Shown here piece by piece: positions 13,120 through 44,903 of a stretch of DNA of 55,074 nucleotides. The notes under the pieces are model-generated. The model worked only from the letters and a program-made list of their open reading frames with translations, ran no database searches and was not told the origin of the DNA. The stretch lies in the IMG/VR virus record IMGVR_UViG_3300032290_000758, positions 1 to 55,074 of that record; one strand, given 5' to 3'. This DNA is from a virus (lineage: Duplodnaviria > Caudoviricetes). The stretch's first letter is position 1. Each line of letters begins with the position of its first letter. The translations under genes and the position numbers were made by a program.

Positions 13120-16100
13120 ATGATTGAACAATTGCAACCACAAGATCCTCCATATAGGAAAAGGGTATTTGATCTTTTAGCTGGAAATTTTGATGACTTC
13201 AAAACAAGTGAGCAAGACTTCTACAAAAAACTAGATACAGATCCTGCCTATACAGATAAGGTGTTTGAAGTTCTCAGTTCAAACTTTTACGATTTCAAAC
13301 GCCCTAAGCAGGAGTTTGTTTCAATGCTCGTTGAAAAAAAAAATCCAGTCGAAACTACTACTCCGGATTATACATCAAAGCCTGCGCTTTATGCTCCAAG
13401 ATCTGTCGCTACTTCCCAATCAAAATCACCATCACCTTCGGGCCTCACCTATAACGACATCGAGGCTGTACTAGTAAAGAGTAATGACTTAAGAAAGAAG
13501 GTAGAGAATAACGATAAACTTGCCCTTAAAGCTCAGGAAATGGGCTGGGGTGAAAGTTGGAAGAATCAAGTAAAGCAAGATAAGTCTGCGTACGACGCTG
13601 CGCAATTGGAAAAGAATAGTGTGCTTCAGCAGTATGGTACACAGGTTTCTCGCCCTGTAGATATCCTCATTGAGAACGGCGACTATAAGAAGTTCTTTAA
13701 TGAGGATGATGTATTTGATGAAGGTAAAGCTGTTGCATATTTTCAGAAAGTATCAGAGAAGTACGGTGGCGGCTCCTACCTACAGAATCAGTGGGTAGTT
13801 AATTTAAAGAGTAAAGCACAACTTGAGATGGATAAGCCAAGGTTTAATGCGCTTGTCAGTGAGGAGATGAAGAAGAGCGGGATTAAACCTGAAGATGTTA
13901 ACATTGAAGAAGCCGGCAAGAAACTATTCGATAAACTTACACAAGATAAAAGAGCTACAGCAGAAAGCCTAGTAAAAGAAAGAGACGCTGAAGCTTCAAG
14001 GATGTTTATAACTGCAGATAATAAAGCTAAAGAGGCTGCAACGGTATTTGACCAACAGGCTACAGCTCTTAATGAGCAGATCAAAGCTGGAACTATTACA
14101 TACGAAAATGCAGTAGAGCAGTACGATCAACTTAAAAAACAATACGACCTAGTTATTAAAGGTCTTGACAACGGATACAAAGAAGCGATCCGTAAAGTGA
14201 ATATCAAATTTAACGGTAAGTTTAATCGCATTGAAGACGAGATCAGACAAATCGGATCTACAATTGATGGTGATAAGGCATTTGAATCCCTGCCGCCTGA
14301 TGTGAAAAAGAAATTTCAGCAGGTTTATATAAACGCAAGTACACGCTTATCTGATGAAAAGAATGCAAAAGCAAAAGAGAAAGATAAGAATGCATCGTTC
14401 TTACCTACTGGTCTAAATATTTTCGGTAAGGGTATTGTTTCTGGATTGAATCAAGGTCTTGCAAATATTGGTGAGTATTTGAATATGCAGGGATACAGTG
14501 GCGGGTTGGTCAATTCACTTCGTGGAAGGGCTACTGCAGCTGAATCATTTGCGCCTGCACAATATAAATGGAATAAGGATGAGTGGTTAAAGAGAGCTTT
14601 AGCTTCCACGTCCACATCTATTGGCGCATCTGCTCCTATCTTACTACCTACTATTGGTGCATTAGTTGCTACTGGTGGTGGTGCTGCAGGTGTAGTTGGT
14701 GCTGGTCTTGGTTCATTTGCTGGAGAAAGCGCACAGCTCGGGGGAGAACAGTTTAAGCAGTCACTAACTCAGACAGGAGATGTAGAAGAAGCATCTAAGA
14801 AATCTGAGCAGATGATGCGTGGCAACATGATCACTATGCCACTATACTTTATTGGTGGTATGGGGGATGCTATGATTGCTACTGGTAAAGGATTACGAAA
14901 GCTTGCTACTGGTGTTGCTCTTGAGCAATTAGAAGAAGTACCAACAGAATACATTCAAAGCTATAACCAAGCTGTTGCTAATGGTTATAAGAAAGGTATA
15001 GGCGCATTCATAAAAGAGAACCCAGAGATCGCTGCTGATACATTCATATCAACAGTTGGGCAGGGTGCCGCCATGAAAGGTTTCTCGAAAGCTTTATCGC
15101 CATTACAAAAATTTATTCCTAACTCTACCACTCAGATGTTAACCGACGTGGTTACAAAAAATGGAGTAGATTTTGCCAACGCTCTTATTGATAAGTGGTA
15201 TGAGAATGGTAAGATAAGTAAAGAGGTTGTTGCTACGCTAAAGCAAGACGTTACTAAAATATCTGCAAAGATTCCTAAGTTACAGGAAGCTGGTGTTGAA
15301 GGAGACAAGGCGAAGCTAATGTCTTCACTTTCTGCACAATCCCAAGAGCTTTCTGCAAAGGTTAATGCAGAACAAGATCCTGCACTAAAGGCGGTATACC
15401 AAAACCAGCTTAATGCTCTCAATCAAGATATAAATGATTTGACTAAGGAGAACGCTCCTTATGTTGTATTTAAAGTACCCGGAAGTCAGAATGATACACG
15501 CGTGATGACGGTTCGAGAGTTCAATGCTTTGCCGGCAGAGTCTTCTAGTGATCTAGTAAAGAGCTCAGACGGAATCACTGTCGTAGGTGACGAAGCGCTA
15601 AATCAAAAACTAACTGAACAGAAGAAGCAAGTGGGCAATCCAGAGGGTGTTGCTCCCGGTATTTATACAATAGAATCTGCAGTCACTTCTTCATCTCCAG
15701 AACTATCTATTATAGATAATAAGCCTGCGGGAAAAAGACTTTTTAACGATCCTAACCCTGCAGCTACAGAGATTGAAACTTCCTACAAACAACAAAAGGG
15801 TATCGTAGCCCCAGAGCCTGTAAAGATTGAGAAGCTTGACGAAGCAAAGTCTAAGTCTATAGCAGATGCTTACGATGCTATGCAAGACAACCCTTCAGAT
15901 CCTGAGGTAAAAGCTTCATACGAGGCTATGGCCGGTGAGACGATGGATCAGTTCGGTGCTATAGCTAAATCTGGCGTAGTATTCGAGGTATGGGAAGGAC
16001 AGGGTGAGCCGTACAAGAACTCTGAGGAATTAATTAAAGATGTGCGCGATAACAAGCACATGTATATTTTATCTACTGAGAAGGAATTTGGAGGACAGGC

Positions 16101-19100
16101 TATTACAGATAAGCAAAGAGAAAGAAACCCTCTGCTTAGAGATAGCGGGGCAAAAGATAAAAACGGTAAACCTCTTCTTATAAATGACGTGTTCCGAGGC
16201 GTGCATGACTTCTTTGGACATACGAAACTTGGTAACTCGTTTGGCGCCATAGGTGAAGAGAATGCTTGGAACGTACACGCACGTATGTATAGCCCATTAG
16301 CTAGACGTGCTATGACAACCGAAACTAGAGGGCAAAACTCATGGGTAAACTTCGGGCCTCAGATGAGAAACGAAGATGGATCAATTAAAAAGAAAGGTGA
16401 TCCCGGTTATCTCAGCCCAAGAGAGCGTGCTTTTGCTGAACAAAAAATTGGTTTGTTGCCAGAGGAATTTTCAATCATTGAGGAGTCTTACTCTGTAACA
16501 CCTTCTATAGATAATAGCAATAACATTTCAACTAGTGAGCCCAAAAAAAATATAGCCACAAGACTTAAGAATGAAATCTTTGGCGACACTGATACGAAGG
16601 TTCAGTCAGTACAGAAAGCGCTTAAATCTACTGGCGTTAAGGTTACAATGGTTGATAATGCTGAGGAGTTTGATAAGAGAGTAGCTGAAGCTGGTGGACA
16701 AAGAGGGCTTGAGGGTGTATTCCTTTCTGATACTGGAGAGATATTAATCAATAGGAGTAAACTAGATCAGGGCATTGCTGATGGCAAAGTTGTTTGGCAC
16801 GAAGCCTCTCACCCTGTCGTAAACATTGTAAGAAACACAAACCCAGAACTTTTTAATAAAGTAGTTAGTGGTCTCAATGCCGCCGCTGCAAATAACCAAG
16901 GAGTTGCAGAAGCTCTCGCTTGGGCAAAGCAACAATACAAAGAAGAAGGACAGGGAACTATAGATGACGAGGCAGTGGTAGAGACTATAGCTGGAATCGC
17001 TGAAGGGACTATCGACATTAGCAAACTTTCTACTGGTCTCAAACAATCTATTATAGATATTATCAACCGAATTGCTAAGACATTAGGTTTTGGTCAGGTG
17101 CTTGATGATACAGATGTAGCTGCATTTAAGAAACTCGCCAGTCAAATATCTGAAGCCTTAACTCAGGGCACAGACATCAGTGAGATTGTAGGTCAGGAGA
17201 ATGTGAGGGACTATATGAATAACATCGAGTCCCCTGAGGTAGTTGCAGGTGGCACATTAAATGTACAGGGGCGTGCGACCGATAAACCTGCTATCAATGT
17301 TTACGAATCTAAGGAGGTTGAACCATTGCCACAGAAATCTCTTGAAGAAGTTTATGAGCAGTTTGGGGGTAAAGCAGTAGTGATCAATTCAGATCCTACG
17401 CGTGTAGGAGAGCTTCAGCTCCCTTCCGGTAAAACCATATTCATGTACGGAGGTCCTGCTTACTTAGCAGTAAAGGATAACGTAGAAGGTAGTGTAGGTT
17501 TTGCTACAACACAACAGTCTAAGGTAAACACATGGAGTAAATATATTAAGGGAGTGTTTGACGATAAACCCGGAGTAACGCTTATTGGCACACAGGCGCC
17601 AACATCAATGCTTAGTAACTCTTATGCACTTCGTTATGTAATGGATGCTATCTCAATGCTCCCTAAGAGTGTATTAAGATCTGCAGAGTTTAAGAAAGAG
17701 TTCTTTGGAAAAGATCTGGTTGCATTAAAAGATGCATTCGGTGAAGATGGTTATAATGCATTTGTAAAAAAATATAAAAGTGCTGACTTATCTAACTCGG
17801 AGACTATCGACAAGATGATCTCTGAAATGGCGTACACAGTTGGAGATAATAACTCCCCTGCAAGCTTTAAAGCTAGGGGTGCATTTGTGTCTAACCTGTT
17901 GGGTGGTCTTGCTGCTAAGGCGGATATTAAAACTGTTGAGGGTGATAAGGGATATGTATCTAAGAAGCCTCAGAAGTTTATTGCCAAACAATTGATGGAC
18001 AGACTCGGTATTAATGCCGAGAAGGTGATGTATGAGTTAGGTGAGAAAAGCTTGGTGGATATGTACATGAACGAAGGGAAGTGGGGATTTGCTGTGGCTG
18101 GATTTGAAACAGATCCAAACATTTCTGTACAGGACGTACAGGATAAGGGAGTTACTCACCCATTATTTAACGCTAAGTTCCCCGGGAAGAATGCGTTTAT
18201 ATTAGATGGCGCCTATGATCTAAACCAGATGTTTACTCCTGTTGAAATGACCGGACCTTCTGGTGCACCATACACTAAGACCGCATCACAGATGTTGGCA
18301 GGAAGTATGTATGTAAAGGGGAAGCCTTCAGGTGAACAAGGGTCTTTCGAATACAAGAAAGCGTCACCAGCAGGAAGAAGAATACAAGCATCCAAAGGTA
18401 ACCGCCTCGAGTCTAGCAAAGACTTCAAGCTTGCTGCCTTCGTAATGAGAGAGAAAGCAGAAGGTGCTCCTCTGTCAGAGATCGTCACAGGTATCGCTTC
18501 GGTATTCCCGAGTATGTCACCTGCTGAGATCAAGATTTTAGTAAACGATCCTGAGAATTGGTTGCGTAGTAAGTTCTCTAACCTCAGCCCTGCTCTTCAG
18601 GATAACTTAATATCTAGAGCTAAGGTTCAAAACATTTATGCTCCCACTCCTAATTCTGGCGGTGGTACTACTAACACGGTGCCAATGTCTGCAGTAGAAG
18701 AAGCTATTAAGGAGCCTACTATTAAAGAGAAGGTAAACAAAGCACTCACAAACTTTAAGAATAACTGGATCAATTCAGCTAAAGGGTTACCAGACTGGGT
18801 AATATCTATCAGAGACTTTGCTGCTGGTACAAAACAAATCGAGATCAGTAAGGCGGAATTAACTATCCGCCAGTTAAAAGCTGTTGCTAAGAACATTGGC
18901 TTCAATGATTGGGATGCATTCTCTGAAGCAATGAAGTCTATCCCGGGCCCAGTACAGAAGCCTGTTGGAACTGGTAATAATATGGTTGCGTTTAATCCTG
19001 CACAAGCTGCAGCTGGCGCTCCTTATACTATTCCTAACAATATGCTTCCACAAACAACACCTCCTGCGGTACAGAAGTTACCTCTTGAGATTATACCGTT

Positions 19101-21390
19101 TGTGTATAAGATGCGTGGCCAGATAGATAGTCTAACTAATGACCTTATCGGTAGTGGTTATGTAACCCCCGAGCAGGCCGCAAAGCTAGAGGCAAATCTT
19201 GGTCAGTACGTTAACCGTGCCTACCGTTTGTATAACGAGAAAGGATGGAAGCCGTCGATCGATCAGATCCGTGAGACTGTAAAGTTCTTAGCTGATCAAT
19301 ACATATCAGACATCGCTGCACAACAAGCAGGTGTAATGACTCCTGAAGAAATTCAGAAAAAAGCTATCGAGCGTGCACAGCAAGATGTCAATGAAATACT
19401 AGATAAGAAAACCAATCCATACTTCGCCTCAAGTAATGAGTCCCGTAACATGGGCATCCTTAAAGAGAGAAAAGATATACCTGAACCTATCAGAAAATTA
19501 ATGGGTGAGTACACCGATCCGGGTACTGTATTCATTATGACTGTTGCTAAACAAGCTGCACTTAAAGCAGCTAGTGAGTATCTCACAAAGCTTCGTAACA
19601 TGGGAATGGGTTCTATATTCTTTGAACCTAACGATCCTAATAGACCGGCTAGTGCAAGCGTTCAAATTGCCGGGGAAGGTAGTGATACTAAGTCTCCATT
19701 AAATGGATTATATACCACACCTGATGTAGCTCAAGCTTTAGAATCAGTTGGCCCTACTTATAATGAAGTAGTGGATCTGTGGATGAAAGTTGTAGGTGCA
19801 GTAAGATGGGGTAAGACGGTTGGATCTGTTAAGACGCAAATCTTAAACTTTGAGTCTAACCTTGGATTCGCAGTGATGAACGGGCTGCTGATGACTGGTA
19901 ATACAGGAAAGGCATTTAATGAAGGACGGAAGTATGTCGGTGGCCAGTACTCTCAAAAAGAAATTAGTGCCATCACAGAAAAGGCTATTAAGCTGGGGCT
20001 GGTTAACCAGAGTGTGAGTGGTATGGAACTGCAAAAGATGCTGGGCTCGGGGGACATCCACGACATCGCATTAGATCTAGCAGTAAACCCAGACTCTAAA
20101 TATCGTATGGCTAAGAAAGCTCCCGGTAAAGTATTGGGTGAGTTCAATAAGCTGTACAGAATGGGGGATGATTTCTGGAAGGTGTATGCGTATATCAGCG
20201 AAAGAGAGTTAGTATCTAAGGCGCTTTTCAATAAAAAGTATGATCAGCTGACAGATACAGAGCAAGCCGATGTAGATGTTGAGTCTAGTGAGAGAGTAAA
20301 GAATACATGGCCAACATACGACAGGGTATTCCCTGCTGTGAAAGCAATCTCTGAGAAGACTCCGATCTTCGGTAACTTCATCAGCTTCCGGGCAGAGTCT
20401 CTTCGTGTACTCGCCAATTCTATCTCAATGGCGATGAAAGATCTGAAGAGTGACAACCCCGGGTTCCAAGGTTTGGGTGCTAGAAGAATGGCGGGAATAC
20501 TTTCTTATATCGCTATCAGAAGTGGTATAACCCATGCATTTGCACAGGCTGCTGGTATGGCCGCGTCTGGATTAACTGGTCTTTTGTTTGGAGGAGATGA
20601 TGAGGAGGGGCGTAAAAAGCGTGCTATCAAGCAAGCTGCTCCACCATTCATGCACACGCAGGATATCGCTGTAATCCCTACAAAAGAACCACACAAATTC
20701 ATCGTGTACAGTCTGTCTGGTATCGATCCGTATAACACTACGTTCAATACACTTAACGCGCTCACAGATGGTACTGCCACAATGAATCCCGGGGCTTCGG
20801 CTGCATTCACTGAATTCTTTGGTGGGTTTTTAAGTCCGGAGATGACGTTCAATACAGCATGGTCTGTGCTTACAAATACAAATCCAAAAAATGGCGACCG
20901 AATTGTTGGTGCTACTGACGACGGCTCTGAAGCTTATGCTAAAGTTGGAGCTTACTTATTTGATGAACTGAAACCTTCTACGATCGGGATGATACAGCGA
21001 CTAGCTGGAGATAATCCTAAGGCAGAGCTGTCTTCACTATTGGGTGCAAAGCCTTACGAGGTTGACCTGCACAAGTCCTTTTCATTTGCAATGAGTGATA
21101 TGGGTAAGCAGATTGAAGAGATCAACCGCCAGTACAATAGGGTTAAGTATGATACTAAATCTAGTGCTGAGGATAAGAAGCTGGCACAGGCAGAAGCTGA
21201 GCAGAAGAAGTCTCTCCTGATTCAGCGTATGAATCAGCGAATGAATGACTACATTCTTGTCGGTGCAGATCCGAAAGAACTCAAGAGTATTATACTACAG
21301 AGATCAACTATCAAAACCACAGGATTCGACAAGCCTACCAAATTTGGAATCATTACAGGTAAGGTTAATGAACAGATTCTATATAAGTAA
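13120..21390 (+). CDS. Giant internal virion/ejection polyvalent protein with zincin-like metallopeptidase motif
   Basis: 2756 aa; coiled coils; hydrophobic Gly-rich stretch; HDFFGH motif (nt 16204); HEASH zincin motif (nt 16798); helical C-terminal region. Confidence 0.7.
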   Translation: MIEQLQPQDPPYRKRVFDLLAGNFDDFKTSEQDFYKKLDTDPAYTDKVFEVLSSNFYDFKRPKQEFVSMLVEKKNPVETTTPDYTSKPALYAPRSVATSQSKSPSPSGLTYNDIEAVLVKSNDLRKKVENNDKLALKAQEMGWGESWKNQVKQDKSAYDAAQLEKNSVLQQYGTQVSRPVDILIENGDYKKFFNEDDVFDEGKAVAYFQKVSEKYGGGSYLQNQWVVNLKSKAQLEMDKPRFNALVSEEMKKSGIKPEDVNIEEAGKKLFDKLTQDKRATAESLVKERDAEASRMFITADNKAKEAATVFDQQATALNEQIKAGTITYENAVEQYDQLKKQYDLVIKGLDNGYKEAIRKVNIKFNGKFNRIEDEIRQIGSTIDGDKAFESLPPDVKKKFQQVYINASTRLSDEKNAKAKEKDKNASFLPTGLNIFGKGIVSGLNQGLANIGEYLNMQGYSGGLVNSLRGRATAAESFAPAQYKWNKDEWLKRALASTSTSIGASAPILLPTIGALVATGGGAAGVVGAGLGSFAGESAQLGGEQFKQSLTQTGDVEEASKKSEQMMRGNMITMPLYFIGGMGDAMIATGKGLRKLATGVALEQLEEVPTEYIQSYNQAVANGYKKGIGAFIKENPEIAADTFISTVGQGAAMKGFSKALSPLQKFIPNSTTQMLTDVVTKNGVDFANALIDKWYENGKISKEVVATLKQDVTKISAKIPKLQEAGVEGDKAKLMSSLSAQSQELSAKVNAEQDPALKAVYQNQLNALNQDINDLTKENAPYVVFKVPGSQNDTRVMTVREFNALPAESSSDLVKSSDGITVVGDEALNQKLTEQKKQVGNPEGVAPGIYTIESAVTSSSPELSIIDNKPAGKRLFNDPNPAATEIETSYKQQKGIVAPEPVKIEKLDEAKSKSIADAYDAMQDNPSDPEVKASYEAMAGETMDQFGAIAKSGVVFEVWEGQGEPYKNSEELIKDVRDNKHMYILSTEKEFGGQAITDKQRERNPLLRDSGAKDKNGKPLLINDVFRGVHDFFGHTKLGNSFGAIGEENAWNVHARMYSPLARRAMTTETRGQNSWVNFGPQMRNEDGSIKKKGDPGYLSPRERAFAEQKIGLLPEEFSIIEESYSVTPSIDNSNNISTSEPKKNIATRLKNEIFGDTDTKVQSVQKALKSTGVKVTMVDNAEEFDKRVAEAGGQRGLEGVFLSDTGEILINRSKLDQGIADGKVVWHEASHPVVNIVRNTNPELFNKVVSGLNAAAANNQGVAEALAWAKQQYKEEGQGTIDDEAVVETIAGIAEGTIDISKLSTGLKQSIIDIINRIAKTLGFGQVLDDTDVAAFKKLASQISEALTQGTDISEIVGQENVRDYMNNIESPEVVAGGTLNVQGRATDKPAINVYESKEVEPLPQKSLEEVYEQFGGKAVVINSDPTRVGELQLPSGKTIFMYGGPAYLAVKDNVEGSVGFATTQQSKVNTWSKYIKGVFDDKPGVTLIGTQAPTSMLSNSYALRYVMDAISMLPKSVLRSAEFKKEFFGKDLVALKDAFGEDGYNAFVKKYKSADLSNSETIDKMISEMAYTVGDNNSPASFKARGAFVSNLLGGLAAKADIKTVEGDKGYVSKKPQKFIAKQLMDRLGINAEKVMYELGEKSLVDMYMNEGKWGFAVAGFETDPNISVQDVQDKGVTHPLFNAKFPGKNAFILDGAYDLNQMFTPVEMTGPSGAPYTKTASQMLAGSMYVKGKPSGEQGSFEYKKASPAGRRIQASKGNRLESSKDFKLAAFVMREKAEGAPLSEIVTGIASVFPSMSPAEIKILVNDPENWLRSKFSNLSPALQDNLISRAKVQNIYAPTPNSGGGTTNTVPMSAVEEAIKEPTIKEKVNKALTNFKNNWINSAKGLPDWVISIRDFAAGTKQIEISKAELTIRQLKAVAKNIGFNDWDAFSEAMKSIPGPVQKPVGTGNNMVAFNPAQAAAGAPYTIPNNMLPQTTPPAVQKLPLEIIPFVYKMRGQIDSLTNDLIGSGYVTPEQAAKLEANLGQYVNRAYRLYNEKGWKPSIDQIRETVKFLADQYISDIAAQQAGVMTPEEIQKKAIERAQQDVNEILDKKTNPYFASSNESRNMGILKERKDIPEPIRKLMGEYTDPGTVFIMTVAKQAALKAASEYLTKLRNMGMGSIFFEPNDPNRPASASVQIAGEGSDTKSPLNGLYTTPDVAQALESVGPTYNEVVDLWMKVVGAVRWGKTVGSVKTQILNFESNLGFAVMNGLLMTGNTGKAFNEGRKYVGGQYSQKEISAITEKAIKLGLVNQSVSGMELQKMLGSGDIHDIALDLAVNPDSKYRMAKKAPGKVLGEFNKLYRMGDDFWKVYAYISERELVSKALFNKKYDQLTDTEQADVDVESSERVKNTWPTYDRVFPAVKAISEKTPIFGNFISFRAESLRVLANSISMAMKDLKSDNPGFQGLGARRMAGILSYIAIRSGITHAFAQAAGMAASGLTGLLFGGDDEEGRKKRAIKQAAPPFMHTQDIAVIPTKEPHKFIVYSLSGIDPYNTTFNTLNALTDGTATMNPGASAAFTEFFGGFLSPEMTFNTAWSVLTNTNPKNGDRIVGATDDGSEAYAKVGAYLFDELKPSTIGMIQRLAGDNPKAELSSLLGAKPYEVDLHKSFSFAMSDMGKQIEEINRQYNRVKYDTKSSAEDKKLAQAEAEQKKSLLIQRMNQRMNDYILVGADPKELKSIILQRSTIKTTGFDKPTKFGIITGKVNEQILYK

Positions 21391-31534: not shown

Positions 31535-32905
31535 CTAGATCCCTAGCTTGCCATAGAAGTTTTCGATCTCAGACTTGTGGCGTTGCTCTACAAACCCTAC
31601 GTACCTATGAAAGGCACCTGAGCCCACACAATGTCCTGAGGCAAACCTAACATGCTCTTCCGATACTCCATTAGCAAGCATGGTGGTAATTGCCGTCTTC
31701 CTTAACATGTGCGGGTGCACCATATCGCAAAGTTTTCCTGATACCTCGACATACTGTCCACGGTGGTTTTTTCTTGAGTATCTATATACTTCGTGCATCT
31801 CAGGATAATGCGCAAGGAACTTTTTAATTGCCCTCCTCGTGTACTGTGCGTTCATATTTTTTAGTGAATAAACCCCTCCGTAATTATCGATATTAAAGGC
31901 TATTTTTTCACTGATAAAACTTGGAAGCGGCATCATGGTTTCTTTCCCTGTTTTTATGTTATCCTTAATTAAGAACCCATCCCCATTTTTGAAACTAAAA
32001 TGGTACGGCATTAAGTTCGTGGCATCGCTAATTCTTAAGGAGGTTACTAGCATGATTGCAGTAATCTCCCACATAAACTTGTTCTCGTTCGAGAATTTGT
32101 GATAAAAATTATGCTTGTCATTCAAAAATGCCTTGATAAATTCCTCAGGAAGGGTGACTATAGGGGTCTGGTAGCTTTCTATTCTTGTTACTTTAGGCAG
32201 GGTCAAGAAAAGCTCATCTTTCCAGTAGTTAATCATTAACCCGACAATATTAAGCATATTAGACCTTGTGTTAATATCATACCCTTGATCTAGCATGTAG
32301 TTTTTAAGGTTTTCTAAGTGCTTATTTAGCTTATCTGCTATTTCTTTCTTCTGTCGCAAGTCCTTACCCGTCAAGTCTAGATCCATGATATCTAATGTGC
32401 CATATTTGGCGGCAAAAAATTCATAAGATCTTTGGCAGAACCGGTAAGCCCTTATACTAGCCTCCCTAAATGGCATATTTTTCTTGGTCTTAATTTTACC
32501 AGAAATCATACCCTGAACATATTCGTGAAGAAGAGAGGTGATCGAATATTGGTCCATTTCCACCACCTCTACAATTGGGGTGGTGAACTCCTGTTTAACT
32601 TTCTCTAAATCCTTATGCATATCGAAGAGCTGAGTGAGCAACACCTTTTGGCGAGACAAGTCTATATTTAGCATGCCTACGTCCGGGGTTGTACCCGCAA
32701 ATTGTTCGCGGCTAGGGAGCCATTTTACATGGCTTGGAACCCTGATGCCAGTGCTTAATCTGACCATGTCTTTTTGATGATAAATCCTACAGTAGATTGA
32801 GTTTGCTCGTTGATAAAATGTCATTTTCATGGGTAATAGTTTTTGTAAAAATATTAGGGTTAAATGGCCGTTTTTTAAGAAACTAACACAGGTTGATAGC
32901 TTCAA
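31535..32905 (-). CDS. int: Tyrosine integrase (Bacteroidetes type; start probably 32830)
   Basis: Catalytic R (SLRISD), K (NIKTG), HxxR (HMLRKT), H (SGH), Y (HRYV); N-terminal 'RLSTGI' arm-binding domain. Confidence 0.9.
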   Translation of the reverse strand: MKLSTCVSFLKNGHLTLIFLQKLLPMKMTFYQRANSIYCRIYHQKDMVRLSTGIRVPSHVKWLPSREQFAGTTPDVGMLNIDLSRQKVLLTQLFDMHKDLEKVKQEFTTPIVEVVEMDQYSITSLLHEYVQGMISGKIKTKKNMPFREASIRAYRFCQRSYEFFAAKYGTLDIMDLDLTGKDLRQKKEIADKLNKHLENLKNYMLDQGYDINTRSNMLNIVGLMINYWKDELFLTLPKVTRIESYQTPIVTLPEEFIKAFLNDKHNFYHKFSNENKFMWEITAIMLVTSLRISDATNLMPYHFSFKNGDGFLIKDNIKTGKETMMPLPSFISEKIAFNIDNYGGVYSLKNMNAQYTRRAIKKFLAHYPEMHEVYRYSRKNHRGQYVEVSGKLCDMVHPHMLRKTAITTMLANGVSEEHVRFASGHCVGSGAFHRYVGFVEQRHKSEIENFYGKLGI

Positions 32906-36223: not shown

Positions 36224-36281
36224 GGTGAGGACTGCCTCCGGTCTCGATCCGGGCGCCATCAAAATGGGGGCAGTTCGGGGG
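36224..36281 (-). ncRNA. tRNA-like three-way-junction element
   Basis: Minus: an ACUGCC/GGCAGU stem encloses CCAU(UUUG)AUGG and the T-arm-like CCGG(AUCGAGA)CCGG, followed by CCUCACCA. Confidence 0.45.
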
Positions 36282-36296
36282 AAATGTAGTTATACT

Positions 36297-36491
36297 CTAT
36301 AATAGAGAAGCACGTCTACAAAGAATGGCCCAGCGGATATCTCTCATGATCTGTTGAGGATCGCCGCCTAATTGCTTAAGGATATACTTGGTGCGGTTAT
36401 GGGTGGAGAAAGAAGCTTCAGTTCTCCGGATCACGACGCCATTTGCTTTGGCGGTGAAAATGGGGGTTTTGATGCGGGTTCTGGTTTTCAT
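36297..36491 (-). CDS. Basic hypothetical protein (first early gene)
   Basis: ATG 8 nt after the hammerhead; R/K-rich. Confidence 0.55.
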   Translation of the reverse strand: MKTRTRIKTPIFTAKANGVVIRRTEASFSTHNRTKYILKQLGGDPQQIMRDIRWAILCRRASLL

Positions 36492-36499
36492 GGTATAGC

Positions 36500-36550
36500 A
36501 GGGTTTCGTCCTTCTGGACTCATCAGTACGGGAATATACCCGTAGACCCT
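36500..36550 (-). ncRNA. Type III hammerhead ribozyme
   Basis: Minus: AGGGUC^UACGGG(UAUAUU)CCCGUA-CUGAUGA-GUCC(AGAA)GGAC-GAAA-CCCU; perfect core and stems; cleavage between 36545 and 36544. Confidence 0.95.
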
Positions 36551-36781
36551 TTGACTTACCGGGAAGATATCAGTGATAAATCGCCTGACTCATTCGCCCT
36601 GTGCAGGTTAGTCCTTTCGGTTCTCTAACCCCAACACCCTAACTGCAACTGGTGCAGGTTTGGCGCGACATTTGGAGTATATTCACTCCGGCTACTCATT
36701 TGCGAGCCTGTTCGATGCCCGCTGAGATTTTAAGAACTAAGCTATCTGATATCTAGAGTTAAACTCTATTTCCGATAGCCA
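36551..36781 (-). ncRNA. Structured 5' leader/ncRNA released by the hammerhead
   Basis: ORF-free and GC-richer than its flanks; hairpins GCUAUC/GAUAGC (enclosing UAGAGUU/AACUCUA), GGAGU/ACUCC and GGUUAG..CC-GAAA-GG..CUAACC. Confidence 0.5.
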
Positions 36782-36784
36782 GTG

Positions 36785-36815
36785 CGATATTATCAACCAA
36801 TTTTCATACTCCAAA
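36785..36815 (-). promoter_or_regulatory. Host sigma-type early promoter
   Basis: Minus: TTTG-N19-TAATATCG, matching the Bacteroidetes -33/-7 layout (TTTG-N19-21-TAnnTTTG) with two mismatches. Confidence 0.5.
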
Positions 36816-36911
36816 TATTTATTACACTTTTTTTCAAAAATTGTAATATTTACTTATATATAAGTTAATCGAAAACACTTAAATGCATGTTTTTTAGGGT
36901 TCGGGGGCATA

Positions 36912-37626: not shown

Positions 37627-38091
37627 TTATTGGCCGATTTCAAAATGCATGGCGTCATATCCACGGTCTGCTCCGTAGCTAATAAACCCGTTCTTTTTAA
37701 AGATGGCGAGCATCTCTTTGTATTCTGGTTTAGCGAACTGGGCGTTTGGCCATTTAGTCTTGAGGCCATTTCTTGCTGGGTCCAGATCGATGGCAATTCC
37801 CCAAGCATGTCGAGACCATTTAGTTTTTGATCCTCTCATGGTTCTGAGGTTAACGCATCCGCCGAACAGGTCGATCCCTAGTTCTTGGATCTTGGGCAGT
37901 TGGTAGATTTCTAGTAGTTGTTCGAAGACGGCTTGGAAGTTTGGCGCAACTAGTTTGTGGCATTGCATTTTCTGAACAGTGGCTTTCGTATCCCATGCGA
38001 TTCGCATCGGGTATGGGAGTTTTAGTACGGTTAGGCTGGAGATATCTCCGGGTTGTCCGTACTTCTCGATGATTTGTTTGTCTGTGAGCAT
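37627..38091 (-). CDS. Endolysin, M15-family L-Ala-D-Glu peptidase
   Basis: 'R.MRG...WSRHAWGIAIDL' and 'DAMHFE' Zn-peptidase motifs. Confidence 0.9.
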   Translation of the reverse strand: MLTDKQIIEKYGQPGDISSLTVLKLPYPMRIAWDTKATVQKMQCHKLVAPNFQAVFEQLLEIYQLPKIQELGIDLFGGCVNLRTMRGSKTKWSRHAWGIAIDLDPARNGLKTKWPNAQFAKPEYKEMLAIFKKNGFISYGADRGYDAMHFEIGQ

Positions 38092-38188
38092 TCTCAAAAA
38101 TACTTGAACAATAAAGCTATTTTATGAGATTTTAACAGATGTTAATATCTTATAATATATAATAGATAGTTTTCCGATATTTGTCCGG

Positions 38189-42901: not shown

Positions 42902-44903
42902 CGGAAGCCAAGAGGTTGTTCAAGGACTAACCTGCAATATTCCTCCCGTCGGTTTTGTTGTAAATGTACAGACCGGTGAGTTGGAAAATAGAGGCGTGTA
43001 TTCAAGATCTCCTAAAAAGTCTGATCAGTGTTGGGAAGCAGTTAAACCTCCACCAGATTACCACAAACTACGAGAGAAAGAAATTCAGCGACAGCTGGAA
43101 GATAAAGAGTTCTTTGATCACAAGCTTGAAACATTCAGGCTACAGGAATGGGATCGCAGATTAAACGGATTCTGGTTTTATAATAATGGGGTACCCACTT
43201 ATATAACCGGACTTCATTACTTCTATCTCAACTACTGGACGCTAGATACAGGACTACCTAAGTACCGAGATACAGATAGAAAGTATTTCTACTTCATGCA
43301 GTACTGTATAGAAGATCCGGAGTCTTTTGGAATGGTAGAGATTACGAAGCGTCGTCAGGGTAAGACTTTCCGTGGTGGTGTATTCTTATATGAGTACGTA
43401 TCAAGGACAAGAAACACACGAGCTGGTATCCAATCCAAAACTGGATCGGACGCCAAAGAGGTGTTTAGAAAAGCGGTGGTGCAGCCATTCAAAAAGCTAC
43501 CACACTTCTTTGTCCCAGTATACGATCAGAGTAAAGGTCTAACACCAACATCGGAGTTAAGGTTTTATAACACAGTGGTGAAGGGTAAGAAGGCTAGTCA
43601 AATATTAGATGAAGAAGAACTTGAAAGTATGATTGACTGGAAACCTTCTGAGGCTATTTCTTATGACGGTCAGAAGATACACAGGATGTTACATGATGAG
43701 GTGGGAAAGACAATGGAAGTAAATGTTTGGAACAGGTATCTAGTAACTAGATACTGTAACCTAGATGATGAGGGGAGAATTATTGGTAAGCACCTACTGA
43801 CTACTACTGTAGAGGATATGGAGCAGGGTGGCGCAGAGTTTAAAATGATATGGTCAAGTTCAGATCAGGAGAATAAGAAAGGTAAAAGAACTGCTTCTGG
43901 ATTGTACAGGTACTTCTGCCCTGCAGACGAAACAAGGTACTATGATCAATACGGATACGCAGATAAAGGAAAGGCATTAAAAGAGATCCTTGAAGAAAGG
44001 AGGTTGCTTGCAGATGATGCTCGTGCCTTGAGCTCGGTTATCCGCAAGGAACCACTTAGTTGGGAGGAGGCTTTTAGAATAGATGGAAGTAAGTGTTTGT
44101 ATAACCCGGAGAAACTAAACGAAAGGTTAGATAGATTAAGCTGGAAAGAAAATGTGACCACTAGAGGAAATTTTGTGTGGGCTAATGGCGAGAGAGATAC
44201 GAAGGTATTATTTGAGCCGGCAGCTAATGGAAGGTGGGAAGTAGTGAAGCTTTTTGATAAAGATGAGGATAGTAATAAGGTTGACAAAAAAGGAGATCTA
44301 TTCTATCCTAACAACACTTTGCAGTTCGTGATGGGTGTCGACCCTGTGGACCATTCTGCTACAGAAGATGGCAGAAGGTCTAATGGTGCCGGCATAGTCC
44401 TGCAGAAGTTTAACGCGGCTCGGGGGGATGATATGTACAACTATGCTTTTGTAGCTAGGTACCTATACAGACCAGAGAGCGTTCAGACCTTCTACGAGGA
44501 TATGATCAAGATGGCGGTGTATTATGGTTGCAGTGTACTGTTCGAGAACAATAAGATCGGGCTGATGCACTACTTCAATGATCGTAACTACGGTCAGTTC
44601 TTGATGTGGTTGCCGGAGAGAAATCAACCCGGGATCGCGGCAAGCCCTAAGACACACCAACAGATTGCAGAGTTAACAGAGGACTATATCAACAACAATA
44701 TTGAAAGGGTATTCTTCAAAGATCTCGTTCAGGATTGGTTAGAGTTTGATATGTCCAAGACAACAAGATTTGACATAGCTATGGCGGCTGGTTATGCTTT
44801 GATAGCAGATCAAGCTAAAGTGCTAAAAAAAGATATTAGTCAGGTACGAGATGTATCTGATTACTTTAAAAAAAATAAAATATGGACAAACTGGACGCGG
44901 TAG
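42882..44903 (+). CDS. terL: Terminase large subunit (crAss-like)
   Basis: 'YITGLHYFYLNY', Walker A 'KRRQGKT', Walker B 'LHDEVGK', RuvC 'GVDPVD', 'FENNK', 'FDIAMA'. Confidence 0.93.
   Translation: MYAPISNGSQEVVQGLTCNIPPVGFVVNVQTGELENRGVYSRSPKKSDQCWEAVKPPPDYHKLREKEIQRQLEDKEFFDHKLETFRLQEWDRRLNGFWFYNNGVPTYITGLHYFYLNYWTLDTGLPKYRDTDRKYFYFMQYCIEDPESFGMVEITKRRQGKTFRGGVFLYEYVSRTRNTRAGIQSKTGSDAKEVFRKAVVQPFKKLPHFFVPVYDQSKGLTPTSELRFYNTVVKGKKASQILDEEELESMIDWKPSEAISYDGQKIHRMLHDEVGKTMEVNVWNRYLVTRYCNLDDEGRIIGKHLLTTTVEDMEQGGAEFKMIWSSSDQENKKGKRTASGLYRYFCPADETRYYDQYGYADKGKALKEILEERRLLADDARALSSVIRKEPLSWEEAFRIDGSKCLYNPEKLNERLDRLSWKENVTTRGNFVWANGERDTKVLFEPAANGRWEVVKLFDKDEDSNKVDKKGDLFYPNNTLQFVMGVDPVDHSATEDGRRSNGAGIVLQKFNAARGDDMYNYAFVARYLYRPESVQTFYEDMIKMAVYYGCSVLFENNKIGLMHYFNDRNYGQFLMWLPERNQPGIAASPKTHQQIAELTEDYINNNIERVFFKDLVQDWLEFDMSKTTRFDIAMAAGYALIADQAKVLKKDISQVRDVSDYFKKNKIWTNWTR

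Follow-up and report, generated by a model that had tools for sequence, protein, structure and literature searches.

A type III hammerhead ribozyme predicted between a conserved structured leader RNA and the first small gene of a phage minus-strand operon

The viral record IMGVR_UViG_3300032290_000758 (Duplodnaviria; Caudoviricetes), a linear metagenomic IMG/VR sequence of 55,074 bases estimated to be 80% complete, was analysed in its whole length and is called here the window. On its minus strand, just before the ATG of a 64-amino acid (aa) open reading frame (ORF), it carries a short element that, by every sequence criterion, is a complete and canonical hammerhead of type III. We consider it likely that this element is a genuine, selectively maintained ribozyme located in the 5' leader of a phage minus-strand operon, and that its cleavage would free the operon messenger RNA (mRNA) from the leader. 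The reading draws on the match to the hammerhead consensus, on the conservation and covariation of the element in related phages, on its spacing from the ATG and on the structure of the leader in front of it.

An earlier note, made from the letters of the sequence alone, had claimed a canonical type III hammerhead at this place, and the claim held for the core, the closing pairs and the stems, with covariation in ten distinct copies. In fact, the core reads C3 U4 G5 A6 N7 G8 A9 and G12 A13 A14, with the pair A15.1-U16.1 and with C, not G, at H17, and the standard closing pairs 10.1-11.1 (G36519-C36508) and 1.1-2.1 (U36544-A36527) are present (Table 1); core, closing pairs and stems are the features by which hammerheads are judged in Perreault 2011 (PMC3088659), where the lack of the standard closing pairs is a ground for rejection. 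Stems I and II are capped by loops and stem III is open, which is the type III permutation, and stem I is longer than stem II by 2 base pairs (bp), an offset that the legend of Figure S4 in the same paper links to pseudoknots in type III hammerheads. The coordinates that the note gave for the predicted cut, 36545/36544, agree with the anatomy as we read it, and both the position of the ATG 8 nucleotides (nt) past the ribozyme and the length of the 5' untranslated region (UTR) kept by the predicted 3' product, 53 nt before the ATG, were confirmed. The proposed contact between loops UAUAUU and AGAA was not borne out by pairing: the best Watson-Crick or wobble match between them is 2 bp, and shuffled loops are as good (fraction 1.0). 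The loops of relatives can pair by 3-5 bp as pseudoknots of the sort described in Perreault 2011, as in G005 (UGCUG with CAGCA) and, by inspection, in L223 (UGCUG with CGGCA).

The cmscan search aligned the element to RF00008 with 43.0 bits over model positions 1-54 of 54, at E = 3.7e-8 on a 501-nt excerpt and E = 4.1e-6 on the whole window (both strands, 4227 families). The spaced pattern GTC-N18-CTGATGAG-N10-CGAAAC has a single match in the window and none in 100 shuffles. The three-stem junction is the minimum-energy structure of a 61-nt piece (-19.2 kcal/mol, z = -2.08, with 6 of 200 shuffles as good), and within a 301-nt leader context the hammerhead fold is both the minimum-energy and the centroid structure. 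It is the only hammerhead in the window; neither a further ribozyme nor a transfer RNA (tRNA) was found there, and the only other Rfam match at E <= 1, to SCARNA7 (E = 0.21), was taken as chance.

Relatives of the window were sought with the primase-helicase, which returned 154 related stretches, 80 of them kept, including five phage records with 79-82% identity. Four of these five close relatives match RF00008 at E <= 1 (44.3, 39.4, 33.4 and 31.4 bits, none above the gathering score). The fifth, G001, aligns with the window at the DNA level and carries a hammerhead variant, located at L144:1472-1536 (-) and the same in L199, L215 and L226, in which N7 is a C and A9 is separated from stem II by one or two additional bases; its core is otherwise complete and its changes in stem I are compensatory. 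This variant was missed by RF00008 at E <= 1 and scored 33.8 bits with a custom covariance model that was built from five copies and whose E-values are rough.

Ten distinct copies were aligned, namely those of the window, the five related phages and four other contigs, all of them gathered through the primase or the upstream-leader pattern, with the ribozyme sequence not used as bait. In this alignment, which was fitted to a model in a way that favours the structure and which, like the leader alignment described below, is small and made of related sequences, 97.1% of the cells are paired and 9 of the 14 stem pairs, distributed over all three stems, are compensatory, with both sides changed. 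No shuffle out of 500 came up to the alignment in any of the five measures, and with the partner displaced by 1-3 columns 25-42% of the cells stayed paired. The register of the stems is not in doubt, because invariant core bases bracket them; the ten copies agree at every core position but N7. A wider set of 13 sequences, which includes four unrelated phage type III copies and in which stem I is partly fixed by the search pattern, gave a similar picture of covariation.

Other routes to relatives were followed from genes and sequences of the window. The endolysin led to 27 loci, with the hammerhead core in none of the fetched flanks, and a scan keyed to stem II led to 29 loci that were set aside as mostly not type III, because the hairpin after GAAAC closes stem III. 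Queries with the winged-helix protein, the 64-aa ORF and the integrase-like ORF gave no related loci, because the search method finds close relatives only, and a search for DNA similarity to isolated phages gave no match.

The ribozyme is linked to a start codon: in every one of the ten copies, A15.1 is followed by an ATG at a distance of 11-18 nt. The ORFs that begin there are of 34-253 aa and, from inspection of their translations, represent at least six unrelated protein sequences; thus the ribozyme-to-ATG arrangement has been conserved while the gene that follows has been exchanged. The 64-aa ORF of the window is itself conserved in relatives, not always as the first gene. A broader scan of IMG/VR with a pattern of stem I plus core gave 43 loci, 36 of them distinct and mostly of type II (stem II open) by inspection, and in 31 of the 36 an ORF start (ATG, ORF of at least 50 aa) falls within 60 nt, as compared with 462 of 1800 random positions in the same loci.

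A mosaic junction appears at the same place in a DNA contig of the public run X3, in which both flanks match the window (36462-36500 and 36543-36589) and 617 other letters replace 36501-36542; the break begins 2 nt past the predicted cleavage site, and the contig points to a strain in which another cassette, or an added one, occupies the ribozyme site. This replacement, and the different genes that follow the ribozyme in close relatives, are what would be expected if the element did not cleave in vivo and were an inert relic, or simply a conserved boundary at which gene cassettes are exchanged by recombination. We regard this as very improbable, since a boundary needs identity and not compensatory changes, yet 9 of the 14 pairs covary around a core that is fixed in all ten copies.

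The region between the upstream gene and the ribozyme contains a second conserved RNA, which the earlier note did not mention: a structured leader that ends in the ribozyme. Its core folds as an invariant helix, GCGCC with GGUGU, that closes off one covarying hairpin, and after it comes another, which also covaries and bears a GAAA loop; the invariance of helix 1 is partly owed to the search pattern, which fixed it. An alignment of 13 sequences has 97.6% of its cells in pairs, with compensatory changes in 9 of 19 pairs. Among 500 shuffles, none reached its covariation score, its proportion of paired cells or its number of doubly changed cells; one reached its count of compensatory pairs, and 27 its count of further pair types. 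At the DNA level, identity with three relatives is 74-79% over approximately 150-170 nt, with conservation starting near 36730. There is no minus-strand ORF of at least 40 aa between 36853 and 36552, and Rfam gave no family for the leader at E <= 1 in the window or at E <= 5 in the loci of five relatives.

There is one leader core per genome, and at least 16 distinct sequences from phages or metagenomes have it, some next to a hammerhead and some not. A metagenome scan for the leader pattern gave 26 matches, 17 of them true leaders and nine of them chance matches in coding DNA rich in G and C; a type III hammerhead follows directly in six of the 17 leaders and is absent from that place in 11. 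In viral contigs, the matches to the leader pattern were in records with a hammerhead in 6 of 6 cases, and the leader lies directly 5' of the predicted cleavage site in eight distinct leader-core loci. In two close relatives, G002 and G003, the hammerhead stands behind a different 3' leader domain. Leader and ribozyme are thus separable modules, because these two differ in the leader and other loci have the leader without a hammerhead. No prophage or host was found with the leader pattern in 185,579 species genomes, where the four cellular loci were all chance matches in DNA rich in G and C.

Some further arrangements were seen around the leader. Close relatives have a much longer leader, of up to approximately 600 nt, with an extra conserved 5' domain absent from the window. 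Nine more distant sequences (L194, L198, L206, L212, L201, L195, L217, L070 and L067) have the same leader core and one to four tandem putative type I hammerheads between successive small genes. Stem I of these hammerheads is GGUUAA/UUAACC, a cut is expected after GUC, and a conserved 5' UTR rich in A and C and an ATG follow; the string GUC-UUAACC also closes the leader of these distant phages, with no hammerhead core there. They were seen by a regular expression and a custom model, and a gathering-score Rfam scan of the loci of ten relatives gave tRNAs only. In L209:11886-12535 (-), what comes after the leader core is another kind of element, of approximately 65 nt and without a hammerhead core, and then a UTR of the same type, rich in A and C; this element had no Rfam match in the gathering-score scan, which gave one tRNA elsewhere in that locus.

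From these elements we infer the following course, in which the promoter, the cut in vivo and its consequences for translation or stability are all predictions. Transcription would start upstream of the structured leader of approximately 230 nt, and the hammerhead, once transcribed, would fold and cut itself co-transcriptionally after C17. The 5' product would be the leader, ending in ...GGGUC with a 2',3'-cyclic phosphate and retaining just the 5-nt strand of stem III. The 3' product would be the operon mRNA, beginning with a 5'-OH and the two hairpins of stems I and II; the next 17 nt would be single-stranded after the 5-bp stem III separates. Among these freed bases (-17 to -1 relative to the ATG), GAAA would occupy -16 to -13 and an A would be at -3. 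A start region of this kind, rich in A and unstructured, would favour initiation in a host without Shine-Dalgarno sites. The ribozyme would in this way uncouple a long structured leader from the first ORF and fix the 5' end of the mRNA. According to the part of PMC6847099 that deals with initiation, Bacteroidetes lack Shine-Dalgarno sites and prefer A-rich, unstructured start regions, and initiation in Flavobacterium johnsoniae proceeds without Shine-Dalgarno pairing and is helped by low structure and by A at -3, -6, -12 and -13. Removal of a long structured leader before the start is a plausible benefit because initiation in this organism favours low structure and A residues.

The cut may also be looked at from the side of its other product. 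Its main purpose could be a free-standing non-coding leader RNA with an exact 3' end, acting in trans or binding a protein, a possibility that is compatible with the explanation we prefer and that we judge rather unlikely. With the type III topology, the upstream product keeps just 5 nt of the ribozyme; the leader core has a strong structure, is conserved across divergent phages and present in one copy per genome, and its position directly 5' of the predicted cut is kept in the eight loci mentioned above. The processed leader RNAs of phages P1 (c4) and P4 (CI) offer an analogy for a freed leader. Release of small RNAs by phage hammerheads has been described for the VIPR arrays (10.64898/2026.04.26.720920, in its account of these arrays). 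No target was found, however: the sole long match to the leader elsewhere in the window is a 15-nt string, 36602-36616 (-), identical to 42922-42936 (+) in the 5' part of the terminase gene, where approximately 0.02 would be expected by chance. An action of the leader on the terminase gene through this identity was ruled out, as it is same-sense and missing from five of five relatives; from this absence it is probably a coincidence. The 11 of 17 metagenome leaders that have no hammerhead beside them, and the different 3' leader domain in G002 and G003, also stand against this purpose.

The leader could act on the ribozyme as well. The hammerhead might down-regulate the operon, with degradation of the 5'-OH end as in glmS, or the leader or a factor bound to it might gate the folding of the hammerhead; we find either improbable. 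RNAalifold proposed a long-range helix between CAUCAG in the leader and CUGAUG in the core, regulated cleavage has been suggested for some phage hammerheads (Perreault 2011, PMC3088659, where these are discussed), and the weak loop-loop contact of the window copy could bring a dependence on conditions. The complement to the core is not conserved, however: it is of 8 nt in G002 and G003 (30 and 35 of 1000 shuffles as good), 6 nt in G005 (496 of 1000) and 4-5 nt in the window, G004 and G001. Sequestration of the core by CAUCAG is therefore unsupported, with a complement of at least 6 nt in three of six lineages and at chance level in one of these. Moreover, the hammerhead fold remains the minimum-energy structure in the leader context, and Rfam recognised no ligand-binding motif in the window or in the loci of the five relatives.

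Several observations weigh against a maintained, self-cleaving hammerhead that frees the operon mRNA. The score of 43.0 bits is 5.5 under the RF00008 gathering score of 48.5, and a default Rfam scan of the locus lists nothing, although the gathering threshold is a curation limit and not a biochemical feature; the check with Rfam Hammerhead_3 that the earlier note had proposed was thus answered by a full-length match with a good E-value that stays below the gathering score. The core by itself (CTGANGA..CGAAA) is at chance level, with one match (36504-36526) against 0.39 expected per window and at least one match in 33 of 100 shuffles. These two points are the ones that a chance match to the consensus would have in its favour, and we hold such a match to be scarcely credible in view of the whole-window E-value, the spaced pattern that no shuffle reproduced and the covariation in nine other sequences; the RF00008 matches of the relatives and the covariation have effectively refuted it already. 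Fast cleavage at cellular Mg2+ is not assured, because the loops of the window copy pair by 2 bp only, and the function of the leader does not require the ribozyme, because most of the metagenome leaders have no adjacent hammerhead. Upstream of the leader in the window there is no exact Bacteroidota -7 box (TAnnTTTG), a sigma-70 promoter scan of the window gave 9-of-12 matches at best, and a terminator scan gave weak matches only; the transcript may therefore also come from read-through of the upstream genes. Among the public runs listed for this DNA, there is no RNA run, and two runs guessed to be RNA (then rated "probably DNA") have contigs only outside 36238-36814. Finally, the host is probably a member of the Bacteroidota, as indirectly deduced from the large terminase, whose matches are to phages of Flavobacterium (68 records), Cellulophaga (15), Bacteroides (3), uncultured records and a few others, at 31% identity or less.

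With the Bacteroidetes consensus TTTG/TAnnTTTG (taken from the promoter description in PMC6847099), an exact TTTG-N21-TAnnTTTG was found upstream of the leader in 8 of the 14 loci examined, four further loci have the -7 box with TTG at 17 nt, and the window and L201 have none. The TTTG at 36815-36812 in the window is homologous to the -33 element of the promoters of the relatives and forms part of the candidate in Table 1. The ORF had been called the "first early gene" in the earlier note, and it may be so: it is the first ORF after a long leader that is preceded by a promoter in relatives. The reading is weakened by the lack of an exact promoter in the window and by the endolysin and winged-helix genes upstream on the same strand. 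Two inverted repeats rich in A and T, at 36813-36855 (20-nt arms, 80% complementary) and 36848-36869 (11-nt arms, 91%), sit between the winged-helix gene and the leader and could be a terminator or operators.

Table 1. Positions of the hammerhead, its leader and the adjoining features in the window.
Feature	Position (strand)	Remarks
Type III hammerhead ribozyme	36498..36552 (-)	extent of the RF00008 match; paired element 36550-36500
Stem III, 5 bp including A15.1-U16.1	36550-36546 with 36504-36500 (-)	open stem
C17	36545 (-)	predicted cut between C17 (36545) and U1.1 (36544)
Stem I hairpin, 6 bp	36527..36544 (-); 36544-36539 with 36532-36527	predicted fold; 4 of 6 pairs compensatory in the family
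Loop I, UAUAUU	36538-36533 (-)	6 nt
Catalytic core strand C3-A9, CUGAUGA	36520..36526 (-)	aligned to the RF00008 consensus
Second core strand G12 A13 A14 A15.1	36507-36504 (-)	GAA = 36507-36505
Stem II hairpin, 4 bp	36508..36519 (-); 36519-36516 with 36511-36508	predicted fold; 3 of 4 pairs compensatory in the family
Loop II, AGAA	36515-36512 (-)	bare tetraloop
ATG of the 64-aa ORF	36491 (-)	8 nt past the last paired base of stem III
64-aa ORF, function unassigned	36297..36491 (-)	nearest ORF downstream of the ribozyme; nothing matched in Pfam or PHROG
Structured leader RNA, conserved core	36594..36674 (-)	single custom-model match in the window, 91.9 bits; no Rfam family
Approximate full leader	36546..36780 (-)	from inferred start to predicted cleavage site; 5' end inferred
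Imperfect palindrome, 12-nt arms 15 nt apart	36741..36779	at the leader start; 5' hairpin in the 301-nt fold; possible operator or RNA hairpin
Weak candidate Bacteroidota-type promoter	36785..36815 (-)	TTTG 36815-36812, 19-nt spacer, poor -7 box TAATATCG 36792-36785
Possible winged-helix regulator, 106 aa	36912..37232 (-)	phrog_2440 transcriptional regulator, E = 0.0043; phrog_4278, E = 1.8e-4; weak

The ribozyme lies within a block of genes that runs on the minus strand from 38097 to approximately 22900, with, in order, an M15 endolysin, the 106-aa protein, the leader stretch with the hammerhead, small ORFs, and genes of recombination and replication (a tyrosine-recombinase-like protein, a RecE/YqaJ exonuclease and a primase-helicase). 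The stretch between the 106-aa gene and the predicted cleavage site has 366 nt and no annotatable gene; its sole minus-strand ORF of at least 40 aa, which has 49 aa and a TTG start, overlaps the winged-helix gene. The 106-aa protein also gave 19.7 bits with AlkZ-rel of Pfam, below the cut-off of 26.5. Its gene precedes the leader in the window as it does in each of the five close relatives, and homologues of this protein and of the 64-aa ORF are visible among the ORFs of the relatives. The plus strand, from 38542, holds an HNH nuclease, a GroES-like protein, a glycosyltransferase, the large terminase, the portal, head proteins and tail-fibre proteins. The minus-strand block opens with the M15 endolysin (37627-38097), ahead of the regulator, the leader and the replication genes, which is unusual for a lysis gene. 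A 456-aa ORF at 31535-32905 (-) has a phage-integrase domain (Pfam E = 4.3e-10) and no close relative in viral contigs by pattern search, and a single ORF of 2,756 aa occupies 13120-21390 (+) on the strand of the structural genes.

Hammerheads have been known in phages and prophages since 2011. Publications already cover bacterial type III hammerheads, hammerheads beside phage genes and one that precedes the first early ORF in a tailed virus (PMC3088659, in its accounts of these cases), and the roles of bacterial self-cleaving ribozymes were described as "largely elusive" in a passage of a 2019 review (PMC6765202). No new ribozyme class is described here; the novelty lies in the conserved leader RNA and in a comparison across the family, in which one clade has a predicted type III hammerhead right after the leader and another has predicted type I hammerheads between successive genes. 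The window is an unusually clean case, with a single canonical hammerhead, a fixed spacing to the ATG whichever gene follows, a covarying leader and a promoter in relatives, and the hypothesis that cleavage frees the start region and fixes the 5' end of the mRNA can be tested directly with reporters in a host that lacks Shine-Dalgarno sites. A further proposal, which we put forward tentatively and hold to be doubtful, is that the leader core (36674-36594) represents a new functional RNA class of freshwater Bacteroidota phages, with the type III hammerhead as a built-in maker of its 3' end. If that were true, the phage would obtain from one primary transcript an operon mRNA fit for translation and, besides, a defined RNA that regulates or binds a protein, related phages would meet the same need in other ways, through a leader without adjoining ribozyme or through type I hammerheads between every gene, and the family would be a natural comparative system for the purpose of phage hammerheads.

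Among known systems, glmS is similar in being a self-cleaving RNA in the 5' leader of an mRNA that leaves a 5'-OH on the coding part, as is predicted for the window; it has a different fold, depends on a metabolite cofactor and has a down-regulating outcome, and nothing in the window hints at a ligand. The VIPR vrRNA arrays resemble the window in having a phage hammerhead that would release an adjoining non-coding RNA; their vrRNAs consist of 9-16 tandem YNNGG repeats followed by a conserved tail (10.64898/2026.04.26.720920, in its description of the repeats). A vrRNA identity for the leader was ruled out, as no YNNGG run longer than 3 exists on either strand of the window. The multiple hammerheads of prophage operons (PMC3088659 and PMC6765202, where such operons are treated) are likewise intergenic in a phage operon and proposed to process polycistronic RNA; the window, in contrast, has a single copy, and its ribozyme would stay on the downstream mRNA and not on the upstream product, because it is of type III. 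With the RF00008 type III hammerheads the window shares the full core, the closing pairs, the stem topology and the length offset between stems I and II, and it differs in its score below gathering, its bare tetraloop II and the lack of a credible loop-loop pseudoknot by pairing in the window copy. A parallel in position is HHphage of the haloviruses HF1/HF2, where, in the section of PMC3088659 on these viruses, about 13 nt separate a hammerhead from the first ORF of an early polycistronic transcript, and the mapped 5' end of that transcript is 3 nt or less from the cleavage site. Both are hammerheads close to a start codon in a tailed double-stranded DNA virus, with a spacer of 8 nt after stem III in the window; there, the ORF would be the first of its transcript to judge by the promoters of relatives, and the transcript would be early to judge by gene content. 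HHphage is an HHmeta-like structural variant from an archaeal virus with a mapped 5' end, whereas the window, known from sequence, presents a canonical hammerhead in a probable Bacteroidota phage, with a conserved structured leader in front of it.

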